A DNA stretch of 64,000 nucleotides from Cyanidioschyzon merolae (lineage: Eukaryota), in NCBI GenBank assembly GCA_000091205.1, contig AP006502.2; one strand, 5' to 3'. Positions 4,903 through 43,960 of the stretch are shown here, one piece after another (positions within the stretch are counted from its first letter, which is position 1; the number at the start of each line of letters is the position of its first letter). The translations under genes and the position numbers were made by a program. The notes beneath the pieces were generated by a model that saw nothing but the letters and a program-made list of their open reading frames with translations, was not told the origin of the DNA and did not search any database.

Positions 4903-6327
4903 ATGCCAGGTTCGCAGCCCCTGCGCGTGGCTTGCATAGGTGCTGGATACGTAGGAGGACCAACCATGGCAGTCATTGCGGCAAAGACTCCTCCAGAGGC
5001 TGTACAAGTGCGGGTGCTTGACCTCTCAGCGGAGCGCATTGCCGCCTGGAACTCGGAGCGGCTTCCTATTTATGAACCTGGTCTCTCGGAGTTAGTCTTC
5101 GCTGCTCGCGGGCGAAACTTACACTTCTCCACAGCTATTGATGACGGCATCAAGTGGGCCGACATAATATTTGTGGCCGTAAACACACCAACGAAGGAGT
5201 GTGGTATCGGGGCGGGCGCAGCCGCTGACCTCACTTACGTCGAGCTGGCGGCTCGTCAGATTGCTGCTGCGGCCGATACACCCAAAATCGTCGTCGAAAA
5301 AAGCACTGTACCGATACGCACAGCGGAGGCTCTGAGCGCGATCCTCGAAGCGTGTGGCAGGACCTCGTTCGAGATCCTATCGAATCCGGAGTTCTTGGCA
5401 GAAGGCACTGCGGTACGCGATCTCTGTGAGCCTGATCGCGTGCTCATCGGCGGGGACCTGAAAACCGAGCGAGGGCGCCAAGCGCTCGAAGCCCTCGTCG
5501 AGCTCTACGCCTATTGGGTTCCTCGCGAGCGCATTCTCACGACGAATGTGTGGTCGAGCGAGTTGAGCAAACTCGTCGCGAACGCATTTCTGGCCCAGCG
5601 CGTGTCATCGATCAACTCCATTTCGGCGCTGTGTGAACTAAGCGGAGCACAAATCGACGAAGTCGCGCGCGCCGTAGGCCTCGACAGACGCATCGGACCT
5701 CGCTTTCTTCAGTGCAGCGTGGGCTTTGGCGGATCATGTTTCCAAAAAGACATCCTTAATCTTGTTTACCTGTGTGAGTCGTTTGGTCTGAATGTTGTCG
5801 CAGATTACTGGCGTTCGGTGATCGCCATTAACGATTGGCAAAAACAGCGATTCACGGCGCGAATTTTGCATAGCCTCTACAACACGGCCACAAACAAGAA
5901 AATCGCGATTCTCGGCTTTGCGTTCAAGAAGGACACGGCGGACACCCGAGAGAGCGCCGCCATTGATGTCTGCGGCAGTCTACTGCAGGAATGCGCGAAG
6001 CTGAGTATCTACGATCCCCAGGTGCCAGCCGAGCAGATCTGGTCTGATCTCACGCGAAGATGCCGTCGAACGCGCGACGAGCTCGCTGCCTATGTGACGC
6101 TCGCCGCTACTGCCGACGAGGCCGCCGCCGGCAGCCACGCAATTGTGATCCTCACCGAATGGGATGAGTTTCGAACCCTTGATTATTCGAAAATGTACAA
6201 GAGCATGTGCCGACCGGCATTTCTGTTCGACGGCAGGAGCGTCTGCGACCTCAAAGCGCTCTCCGAGATCGGATTTTTATGTTATGCGATTGGAAGCCCG
6301 GATGACTCGCGAATTCAACTTCGTTAG
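4903..6327 (+). CDS. UGDH: UDP-glucose 6-dehydrogenase
   Basis: ORF 4852-6327. I re-anchored the start to the ATG at 4903 (MPGSQPLRVACIGAGYVGGPTMAV), which opens the Rossmann NAD-binding motif GAGYVGG. The protein is about 474 aa with full-length collinearity to eukaryotic UGDH, including VEKSTVP and the CDLKALSEIGF end, in a single exon. Confidence 0.9.
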   Translation: MPGSQPLRVACIGAGYVGGPTMAVIAAKTPPEAVQVRVLDLSAERIAAWNSERLPIYEPGLSELVFAARGRNLHFSTAIDDGIKWADIIFVAVNTPTKECGIGAGAAADLTYVELAARQIAAAADTPKIVVEKSTVPIRTAEALSAILEACGRTSFEILSNPEFLAEGTAVRDLCEPDRVLIGGDLKTERGRQALEALVELYAYWVPRERILTTNVWSSELSKLVANAFLAQRVSSINSISALCELSGAQIDEVARAVGLDRRIGPRFLQCSVGFGGSCFQKDILNLVYLCESFGLNVVADYWRSVIAINDWQKQRFTARILHSLYNTATNKKIAILGFAFKKDTADTRESAAIDVCGSLLQECAKLSIYDPQVPAEQIWSDLTRRCRRTRDELAAYVTLAATADEAAAGSHAIVILTEWDEFRTLDYSKMYKSMCRPAFLFDGRSVCDLKALSEIGFLCYAIGSPDDSRIQLR

Positions 6328-28877: not shown

Positions 28878-29588
28878 CTAGCGCGGTTCAACGTGATTTT
28901 TTGCGCTGCGCTTTCTCGCTATCTGCTGAGCATCCAGCTCATGATCGCTGCTGGATGCAGTCGCGCTTAGGCACACGTCCACAGACGAAGCGTTTCGCCT
29001 TTTCCGACGACGCCTGAACCACACATTTCTCCGCTGAACGTCTTCGCAGAGCAGAGCAAACCATGCGGGTAGGGTACCCTTATCTACTGCACGGCTCTCT
29101 TCGCTCGTCAGCTTCGCATCAGCGGGTTGCGCGGCGTTGGTCGCCGGCTCGTGCGACAAAACTTTATCGTTTGCGGGCGCGTATCGCAGCGCCTCCGACG
29201 AGACTGCCTGCTCGGGAGCGCTGCAAACCGGAGCGTCTTCGCTTTGCAAAGGACCTTGTGCTGTGCGCGGCGAAGTAACAGACGGCGTCGACGTGCTCTG
29301 TGGTGAATTGCTCCACAAAGACGCAGTAAAGTCCATCTTCTCCGAAAACGCTCCAGGTTTTATGCCAGTCTGACAAGTCAGACAAAGAGCTGTCTCATAT
29401 GCGACTGGCACCTGCTCGCAGCGCTCGCACAACGGCAGCGCTGTCACGGACGAACCCAGCGGCTGCGACGCACTTCGCTGCGCAAATGAATCCCAGCAAC
29501 CATCGCAAATACAAGACTCTTGACAGTATTTGCGAGCAACTGCTTTATTGCAAGTTTCACAGAGTACCTCACAAGTTGCGAGCCGCAT
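28878..29588 (-). CDS. Hypothetical cysteine-rich protein (possible zinc-finger)
   Basis: The track's start is a GTG, and the first ATG is at revcomp 29586-29588. Paired Cys clusters are CETCNKAV...YCQESCICDGCWD and CERCEQV...CLTCQ. No family was assigned. Confidence 0.25.
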   Translation of the reverse strand: MRLATCEVLCETCNKAVARKYCQESCICDGCWDSFAQRSASQPLGSSVTALPLCERCEQVPVAYETALCLTCQTGIKPGAFSEKMDFTASLWSNSPQSTSTPSVTSPRTAQGPLQSEDAPVCSAPEQAVSSEALRYAPANDKVLSHEPATNAAQPADAKLTSEESRAVDKGTLPAWFALLCEDVQRRNVWFRRRRKRRNASSVDVCLSATASSSDHELDAQQIARKRSAKNHVEPR

Positions 29589-29744
29589 TAAAGCATTCCA
29601 GGCGTCTCTTGAGCGTGTTCGTCTCACAAACGAAAGTTCGCCAGCGCCCACGCACGAAAAAGCCCTCGTGGCAGCGGTGCACTGCAGTGGCGATCGCCGC
29701 GCTCTGGACTAGACATCACCAACTTACGCGCAGACGCCTCGCAG

Positions 29745-31590
29745 TTTTCTTGGACCGTCCACCCACTACTACTTACAACTTTTTCTCATATAGTTCGACT
29801 TGTAGAGGTTGTCCAACTAAGTTCTTTCGTGTCCAATCTGGAGGTCTTTTCTCCACCACCGCACATCTCCGTATTGATTGCGGCATGAAAGCCTCGATTC
29901 ACGAATTCCATCCGTTTCTTGCCATCGTTGGTTGTACTGACCAATGCAAGCGATCCTCGAACTTTCGCCCTCCTTTCCATTAGCTCTTCCGTCAGAGGTC
30001 CGTACTTTTTTATATCCTCAGGGTTCCGCTGACACTTTTCCATCTCGACCCTCTGAAGTGTACAACCCAGCGCGTGGTGTGTATATGATGCTCGAAACTC
30101 ATCTATCGGTATTGTAACGAAACGCCGTGCACACTCCTTGTATACCCTCGTCGTTGGAGCTGGAGTAGTCCTTTTTGGGTCTTCCATCGCCCTGCTCAAT
30201 ACGCTACTACGAGCATCTGACTTTCATCCTCCTATAGGGCGCTCAACTGATTGAAGAAATTCGCGAACGCCCGCTGCTTCCCACAGTACAAATTCAATCG
30301 CAAACGAGCCCACCGGGGCTTTGTATACTCCTCCCACAGCGCATCCCAATGCGCAATGCGAACTTCCATGAATTTCCGAAAAAGCTTCAAAGTCCGCTTC
30401 TCGGCTCGTCACCTCGCTCAAAGCTGCCAGGTGCTCTTTCACTCCTGCGTTCCAAGTCTCAATTTTCTTTCTCGCATTCATCATGCCGGATTCTCGATAG
30501 TATCTCGCTCTCGGGAATCTCAACAGACGCATTTCTCTCTGACGTAAGTTGCCGTTGATACAATCTTCCGCACGCTTTGGTGCTTCAATGGTTATGATAT
30601 TTGTGTTTCCGGGTTCCGCGCGGAAGGTGCCAGATAACGACTTTGTCGTTGGCGCGGACCCCGGAAACACAAATATCATAACCATCGGTGCTCCCAAGCG
30701 CGTGGAAGATGGTGCTGACGGCAACTTACGTCAGAAAGCCATGCGTCTTCTGAGATTATCGAGAGCGAGATACTATCGAGCATCCGCTATAATGAATGCG
30801 AGAAAGAAAATTGAGACTTGGAACGCAGGAGTGAAAGAGCACCTGGCAGCTTTGAGCGAGGTGACGAGCCGAGAAGCGGACTTTGAAGCTTTTTCGGAAA
30901 TTCATGGAAGTTCGCATTGCGCATTGGGATGCGCTGTGGGAGGAGTATACAAAGCCCCGGTGGGCTCGTCTGCGAATGAATCTATACGGTGGGAGGCAGC
31001 GGGCGTTTGCTAATTTTTTCAATCAGTTGAGTGCCTTGAAGGAGGATGAAAGTCAGAGGCGCGTAGTAGCGTATTGAGCAGGGCGCTGGAAGACACAGAA
31101 AGGGCGTTCACCAGCTCCAACGACAAGAACGTACAAAGAGTGTGCACGGCGTTTCGTTACGATACGGGTAGAGGAGTTTCGAGCATCGTATACACACCAA
31201 GAGCTGGGATGTACACTTCAGAGAGTGGAGATGGAAAAGTGCCAGAGCAGCCCTGAGGAAATAGCAAAGTACGGATCGCTGACGGAGGAGCAAATGGAAA
31301 GGAGGGCAAAAGTTCCAGGACTTCTTGCATTAGTGAGTACAACGAGTGACGGCAAGAAGCGGATGGAGTTCGTGAACCGAGACGTTAACCCAGCTATCAA
31401 TATCAGGAAGTGTGCGGTGCTGGAGAAAATACCTCCAGCGTCGACAAGAGAGAACTTTGTTGGACAGCCTCTCAAAGTCGAACTATATGAGAAAAAGTTG
31501 GAAGCAGTAGTGAGTGGCCTGTCCAAAAGACCAGGAGGCGTCTGCACCTCAATTGAAGACTTCTTGTCTAGAGCGGGTTTCTCGCCACTA
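29745..31590. mobile_element. Palindromic head-to-head pair of 5'-truncated Fanzor/TnpB-like (IS200/IS605 OrfB-type RuvC nuclease) elements
   Basis: The central ~30 bp per side is a perfect inverted repeat: 30589-30616 (ggttatgatatttgtgtttccgggttcc) is the reverse complement of 30657-30684, across a ~40-bp asymmetric spacer. Each arm of ~0.9 kb then encodes, reading outward, a RuvC-I-like motif (VGADPGNTNIITIG), a degenerate Zn-finger region (VTI..EFRASYTH..LGC...CQ) and a RuvC-III motif (KRMEFVNRDVNPAINI). Arm ends near 29745 and 31590 are marked by antisense ORFs 29399-29983(+) and 31218-31976(-), which share the string LDRP.TT..NFFSYSST.RGCPTKF. Confidence 0.65.
29786..30637 (-). pseudogene. 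Fanzor/TnpB-like nuclease, minus-strand copy, more degraded
   Basis: Reading in reverse complement gives ...TFRAEPGNTNIITIEAPKR... (RuvC-I D to E). Frame breaks fall at ~30224 and 30199, then ...TRVYKECARRFVTIPIDEFRASYTHHALGCTLQRVEMEKCQRNPEDIKKYG...GKKRMEFVNRGFHAAINTEMCGGG (RuvC-III DV to GF), stopping at 29786. Confidence 0.5.
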
Positions 31591-31662
31591 CTGTACCACT
31601 GGCGACGTTCGACTTTCGAACGGCGTTCGATGGAAAGGGTGTTATTGGCCCTAGCTTTTTGA
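30639..31662 (+). pseudogene. Fanzor/TnpB-like nuclease, plus-strand copy, RuvC-I to C-terminus, interrupted
   Basis: Frame 0 runs 30639 to ~30950 (DFVVGADPGNTNIITIGAPKR...NARKKIETWNAGVKEHLAAL...). It shifts to frame +1 (…RQRAFANFFNQLSALKEDE…), hits an in-frame TGA at 31075-31077, then continues ...TYKECARRFVTIRVEEFRASYTHQELGCTLQRVEMEKCQ...GKKRMEFVNRDVNPAINIRKCAVLEK… to the stop at 31662. The aspartates of RuvC-I and RuvC-III are retained. There is no N-terminal WED/REC region. Confidence 0.55.
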
Positions 31663-31677
31663 GTTTTGATAACGGTG

Positions 31678-32409
31678 ATGAGTCGCTCTGTGTGGTTCGA
31701 GAAGCTGCGTGCTGGCATCGGTACGGTCGCGACGCCGCTGCCGCTGCCAAACACCGCGATTCGACGCAGCCAGAGTTGGAGCCGTCGGTTTGTGGCGCGT
31801 ACGATTGTCGCATTTATAACAGTAGCTGGTTTGGCAACCATAGCTTGGCACTCAAGTTCTTGGCGAGAGGCTGTGTTTCCCACGAAAGTGTTCTCGCAGG
31901 CAAGCACAGAGGCAGCCGCAGCGGCACCCGATACAGCACGAGCGGCACCAGGGTTGCCGCGGACAATGCTCACCAAAGCACCGGGAAAGATCCCTTTCCA
32001 GGACGAGAAACCGCCAACCAGGGCAGAGCTCGGTCGAGCGGGATGGACGCTTCTTCACTCGATAGCGGCAAACTATCCAGAGGTGGCCACACCAGAGATG
32101 CAAACCCATGCTCGTCAATTCATTGCATCTTTTGCCGCGCTTTACCCGTGTCCGACCTGTCGAGAGCATTTCCAGGGATACGTGCGAACCCATCCACCTG
32201 CATTAGAATCCCGAGAGCAATTCGTGAAATGGTGCTGTCGTGCACATAACGCGGTGAACCTGCGTCTGGGGAAACCCACCATTCCCTGTACAGATTTGCA
32301 ACTACTCGACAAACGCTGGCGCGACTGCCACTGCGACGAGCAGGAGCCCCAGAACATGATCCGCGCTGCACGGCGCCTGATCGAAAGCCGCCGCCCAAAC
32401 GCCGGTTAG
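31678..32409 (+). CDS. Erv1/ALR-family FAD-linked sulfhydryl oxidase with N-terminal membrane segment
   Basis: The C-terminal domain reads ELGRAGWTLLHSIAANYPEVATPEMQTHARQFIASFAALYPCPTCREHFQGYV...REQFVKWCCRAHNAVNLRLGKP, which gives the Erv1 CxxC pair and the W..H / HN.VN signature. The start is placed at the first ATG (31678) after the track's TTG and is uncertain, and the 5' end abuts the Fanzor arm. Confidence 0.65.
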   Translation: MSRSVWFEKLRAGIGTVATPLPLPNTAIRRSQSWSRRFVARTIVAFITVAGLATIAWHSSSWREAVFPTKVFSQASTEAAAAAPDTARAAPGLPRTMLTKAPGKIPFQDEKPPTRAELGRAGWTLLHSIAANYPEVATPEMQTHARQFIASFAALYPCPTCREHFQGYVRTHPPALESREQFVKWCCRAHNAVNLRLGKPTIPCTDLQLLDKRWRDCHCDEQEPQNMIRAARRLIESRRPNAG

Positions 32410-42885: not shown

Positions 42886-43389
42886 CTTCCGTGCAGCGCT
42901 CGCTCTGGAGCACCGGACGTCCAGTAGCGAGGGTCGTCGCCTTGAACTGCACGCCGTTCCGTTCCTCTGCCGGACGGGCGAGCGTCACCGAGCACACCAG
43001 AGCAGACCTAGAATGCTGGACTACACGAATAGAACAAGAGATTCCTGGCGATATCGTCGGTTTGCAGCACAACAGCAGTATTGGCAACTGCGCAGCAAGT
43101 CAGTATGGTGTACGCGCACGAAAACGAGCGAGCGTCCCCGGGAACGTAAACTTGTCGTCCATCACCAGGGTAGAGACGAGCTGTGTTTACTTGGTATATG
43201 TTTATGTGACGCCGTCAATCATGTCCATAAAATGCTTATCTGGGGCGTAGCTTCGGGTCTGTATGTCTAGAGGCATGCGGTCACGGGAGCGAAAACGTTT
43301 CGCGACCATGTAGGGTGCATGAATAGCTATCCGCAGACGCTTTTCAGCGTTTTTTGACCGGCCCGCAGCTATCCGCTTCAGCTTCTACT

Positions 43390-43960
43390 TGTGTTCTTTG
43401 AACCTGAGAGGCTACCCCACGAAGTGAGATTGCGTCAGCTCCACGGGTCTCGTCTTCAGCATCGCGTATCCTATGATATTGATGGCGGTGTTGAAGCCTC
43501 TGTTCACGAACTCAATGCGTTTATTGCCTCTCGTCACAGCTTGTATTGTGTCGAATATTCAATTCGAAAGACGAATGAGCCTCTCTTTGTGGTCATCAAC
43601 GAAACTGCATTCCGTAGCAGCATGATACCGCTGACGGGATTTGCCACAGTACGCTCCCGTCTTTTCTGTTTCCAGCGATAAGAGCCTGGAACTTGAGTCA
43701 TCGCAGCGATCGCTTTTGCCGGGGCATGCGTCACCGCTTGGAACAAGGCGAGCGTAGACGGATCGATATTTTTCGATCTCTTCTCCAATCTGGATTTCCT
43801 TTCCGCACTTGTTTCATCACGCACAACATCGCGTTCCATAACACCCCTATCGAATGGAACAGCGTGGGCTTGCCCAGCGCGAACAGGCAAGCGTTCACGC
43901 GCCACAGAGCAACCGTCTGAGGAGCTATGGTGAACACGTACCAAGACCTGACCTCACTCA
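43390..43960 (+). repeat. Diverged partial copy (D) of the 1.07-kb repeat family, direct orientation
   Basis: 43700-43900 aligns to copy A 7780-8000 at about 75% identity, with agtcatcgcagcgatcg, gcatgcgtcaccgcttgg and gcgagcgtagacggatcga. Its ORFs 43391-43681(+) and 43534-43944(-) resemble copy A/B ORFs at the protein level (DET..ERKSRL...DPS.LA..QAVTHAP..IAA.T.V). Confidence 0.45.

Follow-up and report, generated by a model that had tools for sequence, protein, structure and literature searches.

The stretch of DNA considered here, a 64-kb window of contig AP006502.2 from the compact nuclear genome of Cyanidioschyzon merolae 10D (all coordinates are positions in this whole window), carries between about 29643 and 31627 a quasi-palindrome whose two arms, each of about 0.98 kb, are 5′-truncated, pseudogenised copies of CMe-1A, a repeat family that encodes a Fanzor1 protein. 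We think it probable, although by no means certain, that the structure is an inert relic in which two such copies from different sources were joined head to head at a GCGC microhomology. A first-pass annotation made from the letters alone had described two outward-reading, 5′-truncated TnpB-like or Fanzor genes that start just upstream of RuvC-I and lack the WED/REC part, lying inside a compact nuclear genome, and on all these points it holds.

The palindrome and its junction

Self-comparison bears out the inverted-repeat structure and carries it beyond the span initially claimed: four collinear arm pairs (Table 1) cover 29681-30621 and 30652-31594, and the global alignment of the reverse complement of 29644-30621 with 30652-31629 gives 826 identities in 982 columns, that is, an arm identity of 84.1%. 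The arms meet at the octamer CCGCGCGG. Close to the centre, the 28-mer pair 30589-30616 and 30657-30684 is a real inverted repeat, as had been noticed, but not the perfect one described, since 27 of its 28 positions match; the longest perfect central repeat has 26 nt (30588-30613 and 30660-30685). The gap between the arms is of 30 nt (30622-30651) and consists of coding sequence of the right copy, in which it encodes ..KVPDNDFVV, just before GADPG. It is part of that copy because the homology of the right arm to other copies starts (modal values) at 30619-30623, and ends at 31627. In blastn comparisons with 82 related loci, the left arm has its inner limit at 30621 in 62 hits and its outer limit mostly at 29672-29677, the outer boundary being uncertain within 29643-29677, with a terminal module at 29643-29665. 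The arm ends, previously put at about 29745 and 31590, therefore lie further out, at about 29643-29677 and at 31627, where they correspond to the right end of the element. No target-site duplication is recognisable at these outer ends.

At the junction itself, the ends of the two copies share four self-complementary bases, the microhomology GCGC (30618-30621) within the octamer, and the right copy contains GCGCGGA twice, at 30618-30624 and again at 30652-30658. All the environmental contigs have three extra nucleotides (GCG or GGG) in the octamer (30617) with respect to 10D. An Rfam scan of 29400-31900 returned two microRNA-precursor matches at the centre, with 36.7 and 21.5 bits and so far below their gathering scores (110 and 90), which reflect the hairpin shape only, and a literature search for this palindrome found nothing relevant.

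Truncation and decay of the arms

On the element reference, the left arm runs from about position 1697 to the right end, its outer 40 nt or so being decayed, and the right arm from about 1664 to the right end. Both arms thus extend to the right end of the element, and both truncation points (1697 and 1664) fall within an internal tandem array (reference positions 1475-1702), namely in its final unit. What is absent from both arms is the N-terminal WED/REC half, and in relatives at least 250 residues lie N-terminal to this point. The peptide motifs quoted in the first-pass annotation are all found in the arms on translation; the catalytic Asp-Glu-Asp set is complete in the right arm, and the left arm has lost both Asp (Table 1). 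Neither arm offers a complete open reading frame (ORF), since a +1 frameshift and an in-frame TGA occur in both, and the left arm has further indels beyond these shared lesions. Divergence from the consensus, at 106 of 976 and 125 of 967 positions in the arms, compares with a family median of 11.4%. Neither arm can encode a nuclease, and both are pseudogenes.

The CMe-1A family

Bao and Jurka (2013, Mobile DNA 4:12; PMC3627910) list CMe-1A as the sole Fanzor1 family of C. merolae, with about 150 copies, each some 80% identical to the consensus and about 3 kb long, without terminal inverted repeats (TIRs), with target-site duplications that could not be determined, and of unknown class; the 5′ 635 bp of CMe-1A also forms a separate repeat, TE-N2_CMe, and palindromic or head-to-head copies go unmentioned in that paper. 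Both the presence of Fanzor1 in C. merolae and the repeat itself were, then, already known. Our family survey comprises 82 related loci and the window (835 kb in all), with about 99 other copies, while at least 504 related stretches occur in C. merolae-like metagenome contigs. The repeat unit reconstructed from the 82 loci measures about 2.65 kb and holds the Fanzor1 ORF only, a subset of the copies having an upstream extension of about 650 bp, which parallels the published alternative 5′ part of about 635 bp, so that the repeat spans ~2.7-3.3 kb; the median pairwise identity of the copies is 83%, and neither TIRs nor a target-site duplication were recognised among the surveyed copies. Host, copy number, divergence, length and the lack of TIRs all fit, and the arms of the window are CMe-1A, as matched to the published description. 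With respect to that description, the window is distinct in holding only the 3′ kilobase or so of two copies, placed head to head.

Of the 99 other copies, 15 are 5′-truncated with intact right ends and none is 3′-truncated, a polarity that hints at 3′-end-first copying of this element of unknown class. The first-pass annotation had found such a relic unusual, a judgment that is not supported given that CMe-1A was published in 2013 with its roughly 150 copies and that copies truncated at the 5′ end and intact at the 3′ end are common. A third relic of the family, more decayed than the arms, lies elsewhere in the window at 43333-43545 on the minus strand, in the intergenic region upstream of a NAD synthetase gene; it is 5′-truncated, has 67% identity to element positions 2382-2590, and its RuvC-III region reads ..IEFVNRGFNTAINI...

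Directly N-terminal to RuvC-I, the family proteins have an acidic 23-residue tandem repeat (consensus roughly KHEDEKEADPATQKVQDNDFVV; from 1 to about 6 units), which was located in proteins P0001-P0034 (columns ~240-420 of their alignment, A1) and, on the element reference, at 1475-1702; we know of no counterpart of it in the solved Fanzor structures. At the left end of the element there is a small hairpin, CGCTCA-G-TGAGCG (seen in locus L016 at about 4940-5000 and at the left ends of 29 copies), upstream of which several unrelated sequence groups are found, consistent with the TE-N2_CMe relationship and with mosaic 5′ regions.

Right-end hairpin variants

The last 25 nt or so of the element exist in two forms with compensating hairpins, as seen in 62 related copies (alignment A3): variant v1, GTTCGAC-TTT-CGAAC, in 28 copies, and variant v2, CGTTTTTC-TTTT-GAAAGACG, in 25. 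The columns that define them (31602-31612) have Fisher p values from 1e-15 to 4e-8, and the linkage that survives Bonferroni correction does not reach beyond the last ~25 nt and the flank adjoining the right end (31641-31643). For this reason the terminal module assorts independently of the body of the element, and the arms cannot be typed by subfamily-diagnostic sites elsewhere. The right arm ends in v1, with a hairpin that folds at -8.4 kcal/mol (z = -2.5), a significant stability, equal to the median z of -2.5 over 64 copies; the left arm has v2 states at all the Bonferroni-passing sites in 31602-31612 and the state of neither variant at 31621. In this 3′-terminal region, where the omega-RNA of a Fanzor1 element would be encoded, RNAalifold gave no consensus structure for the last 240 columns or for sub-blocks of them.

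Relationship between the arms

Outside a 178-bp tract in which the two arms are identical, their divergence d(R,L) is 17.6%, and 35 of the 72 other copies lie nearer to the right arm than does the left. Neighbour-joining bootstraps grouped the arms in 5 of 100 replicates, and the rare states common to both number 2-3, within the null range, whose mean is 0.64 and in which 15% of random pairs reach 2. In short, the distance between the arms is no smaller than that which separates them from unrelated copies of the family.

Reality of the structure and exchange between its arms

Palindromes are a known class of assembly artefact, and one rival explanation of this one is that a chimeric read, or a read folded back on itself, was assembled into it. 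Several short-read contigs do stop at or near the centre (30618, 30647 and 30660), and short-read assemblers tend to break at inverted repeats. However, artefactual fold-backs are near-perfect, and these arms differ at about 16% of positions; moreover, five contigs from independent samples span the centre while retaining arm-specific sequence, two of them (L083 and L084) coming from the ERV1 side on the right and reaching 29945 and 29897, and three (L097-L099) from the CMT646C side on the left and reaching 30816-30894. The locus is found in many metagenome assemblies with 97-99% identity, and the 10D reference is a gap-free, finished Sanger assembly. Since the arms stand so far apart and independent contigs cross the centre from both sides, the palindrome is real, and the chances that it is an artefact are negligible.

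With a background divergence of 15%, the identical tract of 178 bp cannot be due to chance. Within it lies the shared +1 T frameshift, which among the family copies displayed is restricted to the two arms. The right arm of L084 has left-arm states over a longer tract (30750-31017), and the right arms of L083 and L084 read TACGGA where 10D has the TATTGA of the left arm, so that the TGA of the 10D right arm is a separate, small patch of left-to-right conversion. As the extent of identity varies between strains, gene conversion between the arms is both recurrent and recent.

There is also a sign of movement of the centre itself. Three of the contigs that cross it, L083, L097 and L099, fit the window only when the segment 30482-30791 is turned round, which lowers the differences from 84-90 to 9-15, and they have private single nucleotide polymorphisms in common (for example at 30800-30824); six other contigs, L084, L098 and L100 among them, have the orientation of 10D. 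This flip may be genuine, the segment having been inverted through a crossover between the identical tracts, or it may be an ambiguity of the de Bruijn graph, since the k-mers are no longer than the tract.

Fanzor1 identity of the encoded family

The direct profile search with OrfB_IS605/TnpB models, whose failure the first-pass annotation had named as refuting its reading, does fail if taken literally: neither the arm proteins, after repair of their frames, nor seven long family members had any hit in Pfam or NCBIfam. This failure is due to the limited reach of such models, because more sensitive tests succeed, and a broader profile and a fold comparison do recover Fanzor1. Two other leads were discarded, the precomputed label PF26935 standing for DUF8286 only and being marked weak, and a narrow family profile (from A1) finding among PDB sequences a chance angiogenin match alone (E 0.49).

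The arms have 261 relatives at 66-85% identity, and an exhaustive HMMER search from one relative gathered 1006 cluster representatives, many of them of 600-700 residues, at 35-44% identity, with links between family and superfamily of E down to 3.5e-96. A broad profile of 37 superfamily members, two of them from the family of the window itself, matches the Fanzor1 structures 9cf0 (PpFz, from Parasitella; E 1.6e-19), 8gkh (SpuFz, from Spizellomyces; E 5.6e-12) and 9cer (GtFz, from Guillardia; E 8e-7), a PDB match that was obtained only after distant relatives had been added to the profile; the alignment spans the WED/REC region, GxDPG, DEFRTS and nRDxNAAxN. The structural comparison, made with an AlphaFold2 model of the family member P0007 and not of the broken ORFs of the window (predicted local distance difference test score, pLDDT, 87.8; predicted template modelling score, pTM, 0.82), points in the same direction. 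In a Foldseek search of the PDB its top seven matches are Fanzor structures (E 6e-13 to 6e-9), SpuFz being the best (E 6e-13, template modelling score, TM, 0.64) and PpFz and GtFz being among them, followed by Cas12 variants and TnpB. In 99 superfamily members (alignment A4), D126 and E298 of the RuvC triad never vary, and the conservation of D366 is 90% or higher. By these profile and model comparisons, indirect as they are, the assignment of the arms to Fanzor1 is confirmed.

The region between RuvC-II and RuvC-III had been described as a degenerate zinc finger. The CxxC pairs are indeed missing there, but this is no local decay, because they are absent from the whole family, whose consensus reads DEFRTSYTHHELGC...RGLLALV, and likewise from the superfamily consensus DEFRTT...RGLLWC; the missing finger is, then, a trait of the lineage. 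PF07282 is matched in relatives below threshold only (E 0.0023 and 0.071). The more than 1000 cluster representatives (P0124-P0269 among them) themselves make up a Fanzor1 lineage of 600-700 residues that keeps the RuvC triad, is without the CxxC pairs, and goes unrecognised by Pfam.

Flanking genes

Six ORFs of the window are identical to proteins encoded on a 1.62-Mb chromosome of C. merolae 10D, and these exact matches also ruled out an oomycete host, which had been considered early on. The intergenic region between CMT646C and ERV1 measures 2089 bp and is nearly all palindrome, the two right ends of the element facing these divergently transcribed genes; nothing is annotated between them, since their accession numbers are consecutive. 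On its far side, ERV1 on the plus strand converges with the gene of mitochondrial ribosomal protein S7 on the minus strand, their 3′ ends overlapping by 4 bp (32406-32409), which illustrates the compactness of this genome.

Table 1. Coordinates of the palindrome, its internal features and the adjoining genes in the 64-kb window.
Feature	Position	Strand	Basis or remark
Left arm, 5′-truncated copy of CMe-1A (Fanzor1), pseudogenised	29643-30621	-	blastn; tblastn against family proteins; reference mapping
Right arm, 5′-truncated copy of CMe-1A (Fanzor1), pseudogenised	30618-31627	+	blastn against other copies; translation; right-end alignment
Junction octamer CCGCGCGG	30616-30623	.	read directly from the sequence
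Inverted arm pair 1	30170-30621 / 30652-31103		452 nt, 91%
Inverted arm pair 2	29872-30175 / 31099-31402		304 nt, 83%
Inverted arm pair 3	29750-29870 / 31406-31526		121 nt, 85%
Inverted arm pair 4	29681-29740 / 31535-31594		60 nt, 72%
RuvC-I GADPGNTN, right arm	30651-30674	+	Asp retained; Asp invariant in family alignments A1 and A4
RuvC-I AEPGNTN, left arm	30599-30619	-	Asp to Glu
RuvC-II region EEFRAS, right arm	31171-31188	+	Glu retained; DEFRTS in the family; Glu invariant in A4
RuvC-II region IDEFRAS, left arm	30086-30106	-
RuvC-III NRDVNPAINI, right arm	31375-31404	+	Asp retained; family consensus NRDFNAAIN
RuvC-III NRGFHAAIN, left arm	29873-29899	-	Asp to Gly
In-frame TGA, right arm	31075-31077	+	GGA in the family consensus, within VVAYGAGRW
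In-frame TGA, left arm	30196-30198	-	same stop as in the right arm
178-bp identical tract, left copy	30304-30481	-	longest exact shared tract; contains the frameshift in the A-run 30379-30383
178-bp identical tract, right copy	30792-30969	+	T-run 30890-30894; TTTT in the family consensus
Terminal module of the left arm, v2-like, GGGCTTTTTCGTGCGTGGGCGCT	29643-29665	-	hairpin decayed; fold z = +0.2
Terminal module of the right arm, v1	31606-31627	+	hairpin CGTTCGA-CTT-TCGAACG, then GGCGTT, where homology ends
CMT646C (BAM83412)	28878-29588	-	exact protein match; transcribed away from the palindrome
ERV1 sulfhydryl oxidase (BAM83413)	31678-32409	+	exact protein match; transcribed away from the palindrome

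Origin and significance of the palindrome

In the scenario that we regard as probable, the arms would come from two different source copies of CMe-1A, and not from the folding back of one, which would have been joined head to head at the self-complementary GCGC, within the internal tandem repeat of the element, each losing its 5′ half. Most probably this would have come about by a deletion, hairpin-guided or mediated by microhomology, between two neighbouring insertions that lay head to head, an alternative route being strand switching between two templates during 3′-end-first copying at insertion; afterwards, the arms would have decayed like any other copy, apart from the recurrent gene conversion between them. 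Such a join is favoured by the different right-end variants, by the lack of a duplicated host flank, and by the existence of head-to-head pairs elsewhere in the family, namely in L053 (2364/2441, with the 5′ ends 76 bp apart), L009 (1594/2936) and L069 (3039/5485), one of which has both members 5′-truncated, and which are possible precursors of a structure like that of the window. Several facts nevertheless weigh against it: a junction so nearly symmetric, with its 30-nt loop and 4-bp microhomology, is equally the classic mark of a single copy that folded back and primed on itself; the family has a star-like phylogeny, in which arms that are not sisters would also result if the fold-back dated from the burst of the family; the right-end variant is unlinked to the rest of the element, and a later swap by ectopic conversion could explain it; two independent copies would each have had to lose about 1.7 kb, almost symmetrically, which calls for guidance by a hairpin, a process that was not observed; and at this locus neither a target-site duplication nor an empty site was found, the outer end of the left arm being too decayed to fix its boundary. 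The main rival, a possibility that we take seriously while giving it clearly less credence, is the copying back of a single element, which the first-pass annotation had proposed as the repair of a broken copy. A CMe-1A copy broken or stalled in the tandem-repeat array would have had its 3′ end snapped back on the GCGC 34 nt away, and the same strand would then have been copied as far as the right end, whether the element was a transposition intermediate or already lay in the chromosome, and the arms would have been diverging ever since the family arose. The direct abutment of the copies, the loop of 30 nt belonging to one arm, the GCGC and the duplicated GCGCGGA all fit such an event; the excess of 5′-truncated, 3′-intact copies (15 against none) fits a 3′-end-first copying that aborts or switches; and non-sister arms are not decisive against it, because in a star-like family they are compatible with an ancient event. 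A simple fold-back is disfavoured, however, because the arms are non-sister and at the same time end in different hairpin variants, which differ at 5 or more coordinated positions; there is, in addition, no excess of shared derived states outside the conversion tracts, and a fold-back in the chromosome predicts a duplicated host flank, whereas the duplication stops at the end of the element on both sides. Of the earlier proposal, the microhomology-mediated look of the junction stands, while the origin from a single copy is weakened.

More speculative, and in our opinion rather improbable, is that the locus records the way in which CMe-1A moves or recombines, by 3′-end-first, template-switching copying in which two templates were joined head to head, the centre perhaps being present in both orientations in natural populations and acting as a small, invertible flip-flop between two host promoters. 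Such a reading is drawn from the excess of 5′ truncations, the hairpins near both ends, the independently assorting right-end module, and a palindrome with two right ends whose junction lies in the tandem repeat; a rolling-circle or Helitron2-like mode of copying, or a target-primed one, would fit. Very unlikely, finally, is that the palindrome is functional or required, be it for transposition, as a source of hairpin RNA, or as a promoter module, invertible or bidirectional, that serves CMT646C and ERV1, even if it occupies the promoter region of two divergent genes, shows 97-99% conservation in every environmental strain sampled, and has its centre in two orientations among assemblies. None of the ~99 other copies in the 82 related loci forms a tight palindrome, only looser head-to-head pairs being seen, and it is for this reason that the unrecognised structural requirement raised in the first-pass annotation does not hold; both ORFs are broken and decay at the neutral-looking rate of the family; the conservation between strains is uninformative on constraint, because they differ by ~1% genome-wide; and the two orientations may be an assembly ambiguity.

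The value of the locus as a discovery is limited, the family having been published and both arms being dead copies. Its interest lies rather in what it illustrates. The curated TnpB models of Pfam and NCBIfam miss this Fanzor1 lineage, which a profile of diverse relatives or a comparison of folds recovers, so that annotation pipelines will pass over such loci, as has happened to this one in the reference annotation. It is also a clean natural case of gene conversion between the arms of a small palindrome, and perhaps of inversion, while the bias towards 5′ truncation and the modular right-end hairpin bear on the transposition mechanism of a carrier of Fanzor1.

Comparison with known systems

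The palindrome revision described in yeast and mouse and the palindromes of the primate Y chromosome provide known cases of fold-back inversions and of long palindromes with gene conversion between their arms. With these the structure in the window has in common a short asymmetric spacer, a central microhomology, an identical tract maintained by conversion and a possible flip; in contrast, its arms are non-sister and have different terminal variants, its ends fall exactly at transposon ends, and it measures only ~2 kb.

Among the carriers of Fanzor1, the closest likeness is to CRe-1, CRe-2 and CRe-3 of Chlamydomonas, non-autonomous Helitron2 elements in which, as in CMe-1A, 5′ truncation is frequent and the 3′ ends are intact (PMC3627910), and which CMe-1A also recalls in having hairpins close to both of its ends. 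It is a resemblance only, as neither the Helitron end signatures nor a RepHel partner have been shown for CMe-1A. In the Replitron paper, Fanzor is touched on only briefly, and Replitrons are reported as not found in red algae.

At the level of the protein, the family resembles the solved Fanzor1 nucleases (SpuFz, 8gkh and 9cey; PpFz, 9cf0; GtFz, 9cer) in its profile, in its fold (TM 0.57-0.64) and in the D-E-D residues, with an identity of only 14-20%; unlike them, it is without the CxxC zinc-finger (TNB) pairs and has the acidic 23-residue tandem repeat before RuvC-I, and the copies in the window, again unlike them, are truncated pseudogenes. With the TnpB of ISDra2 (8h1j) and of the IS200/IS605 group the RuvC core fold is common, with Foldseek E values of 3.8e-4 to TnpB and 8e-6 to Cas12o, and among the miniature Cas12 proteins a Cas12f1-like TNB domain is weakly matched in relatives of the family, below threshold (E 0.0023). 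In contrast to bacterial TnpB, the arms and their close family have neither a Pfam or NCBIfam match nor a TnpA partner, and CMe-1A is a repeat of a eukaryotic nucleus.

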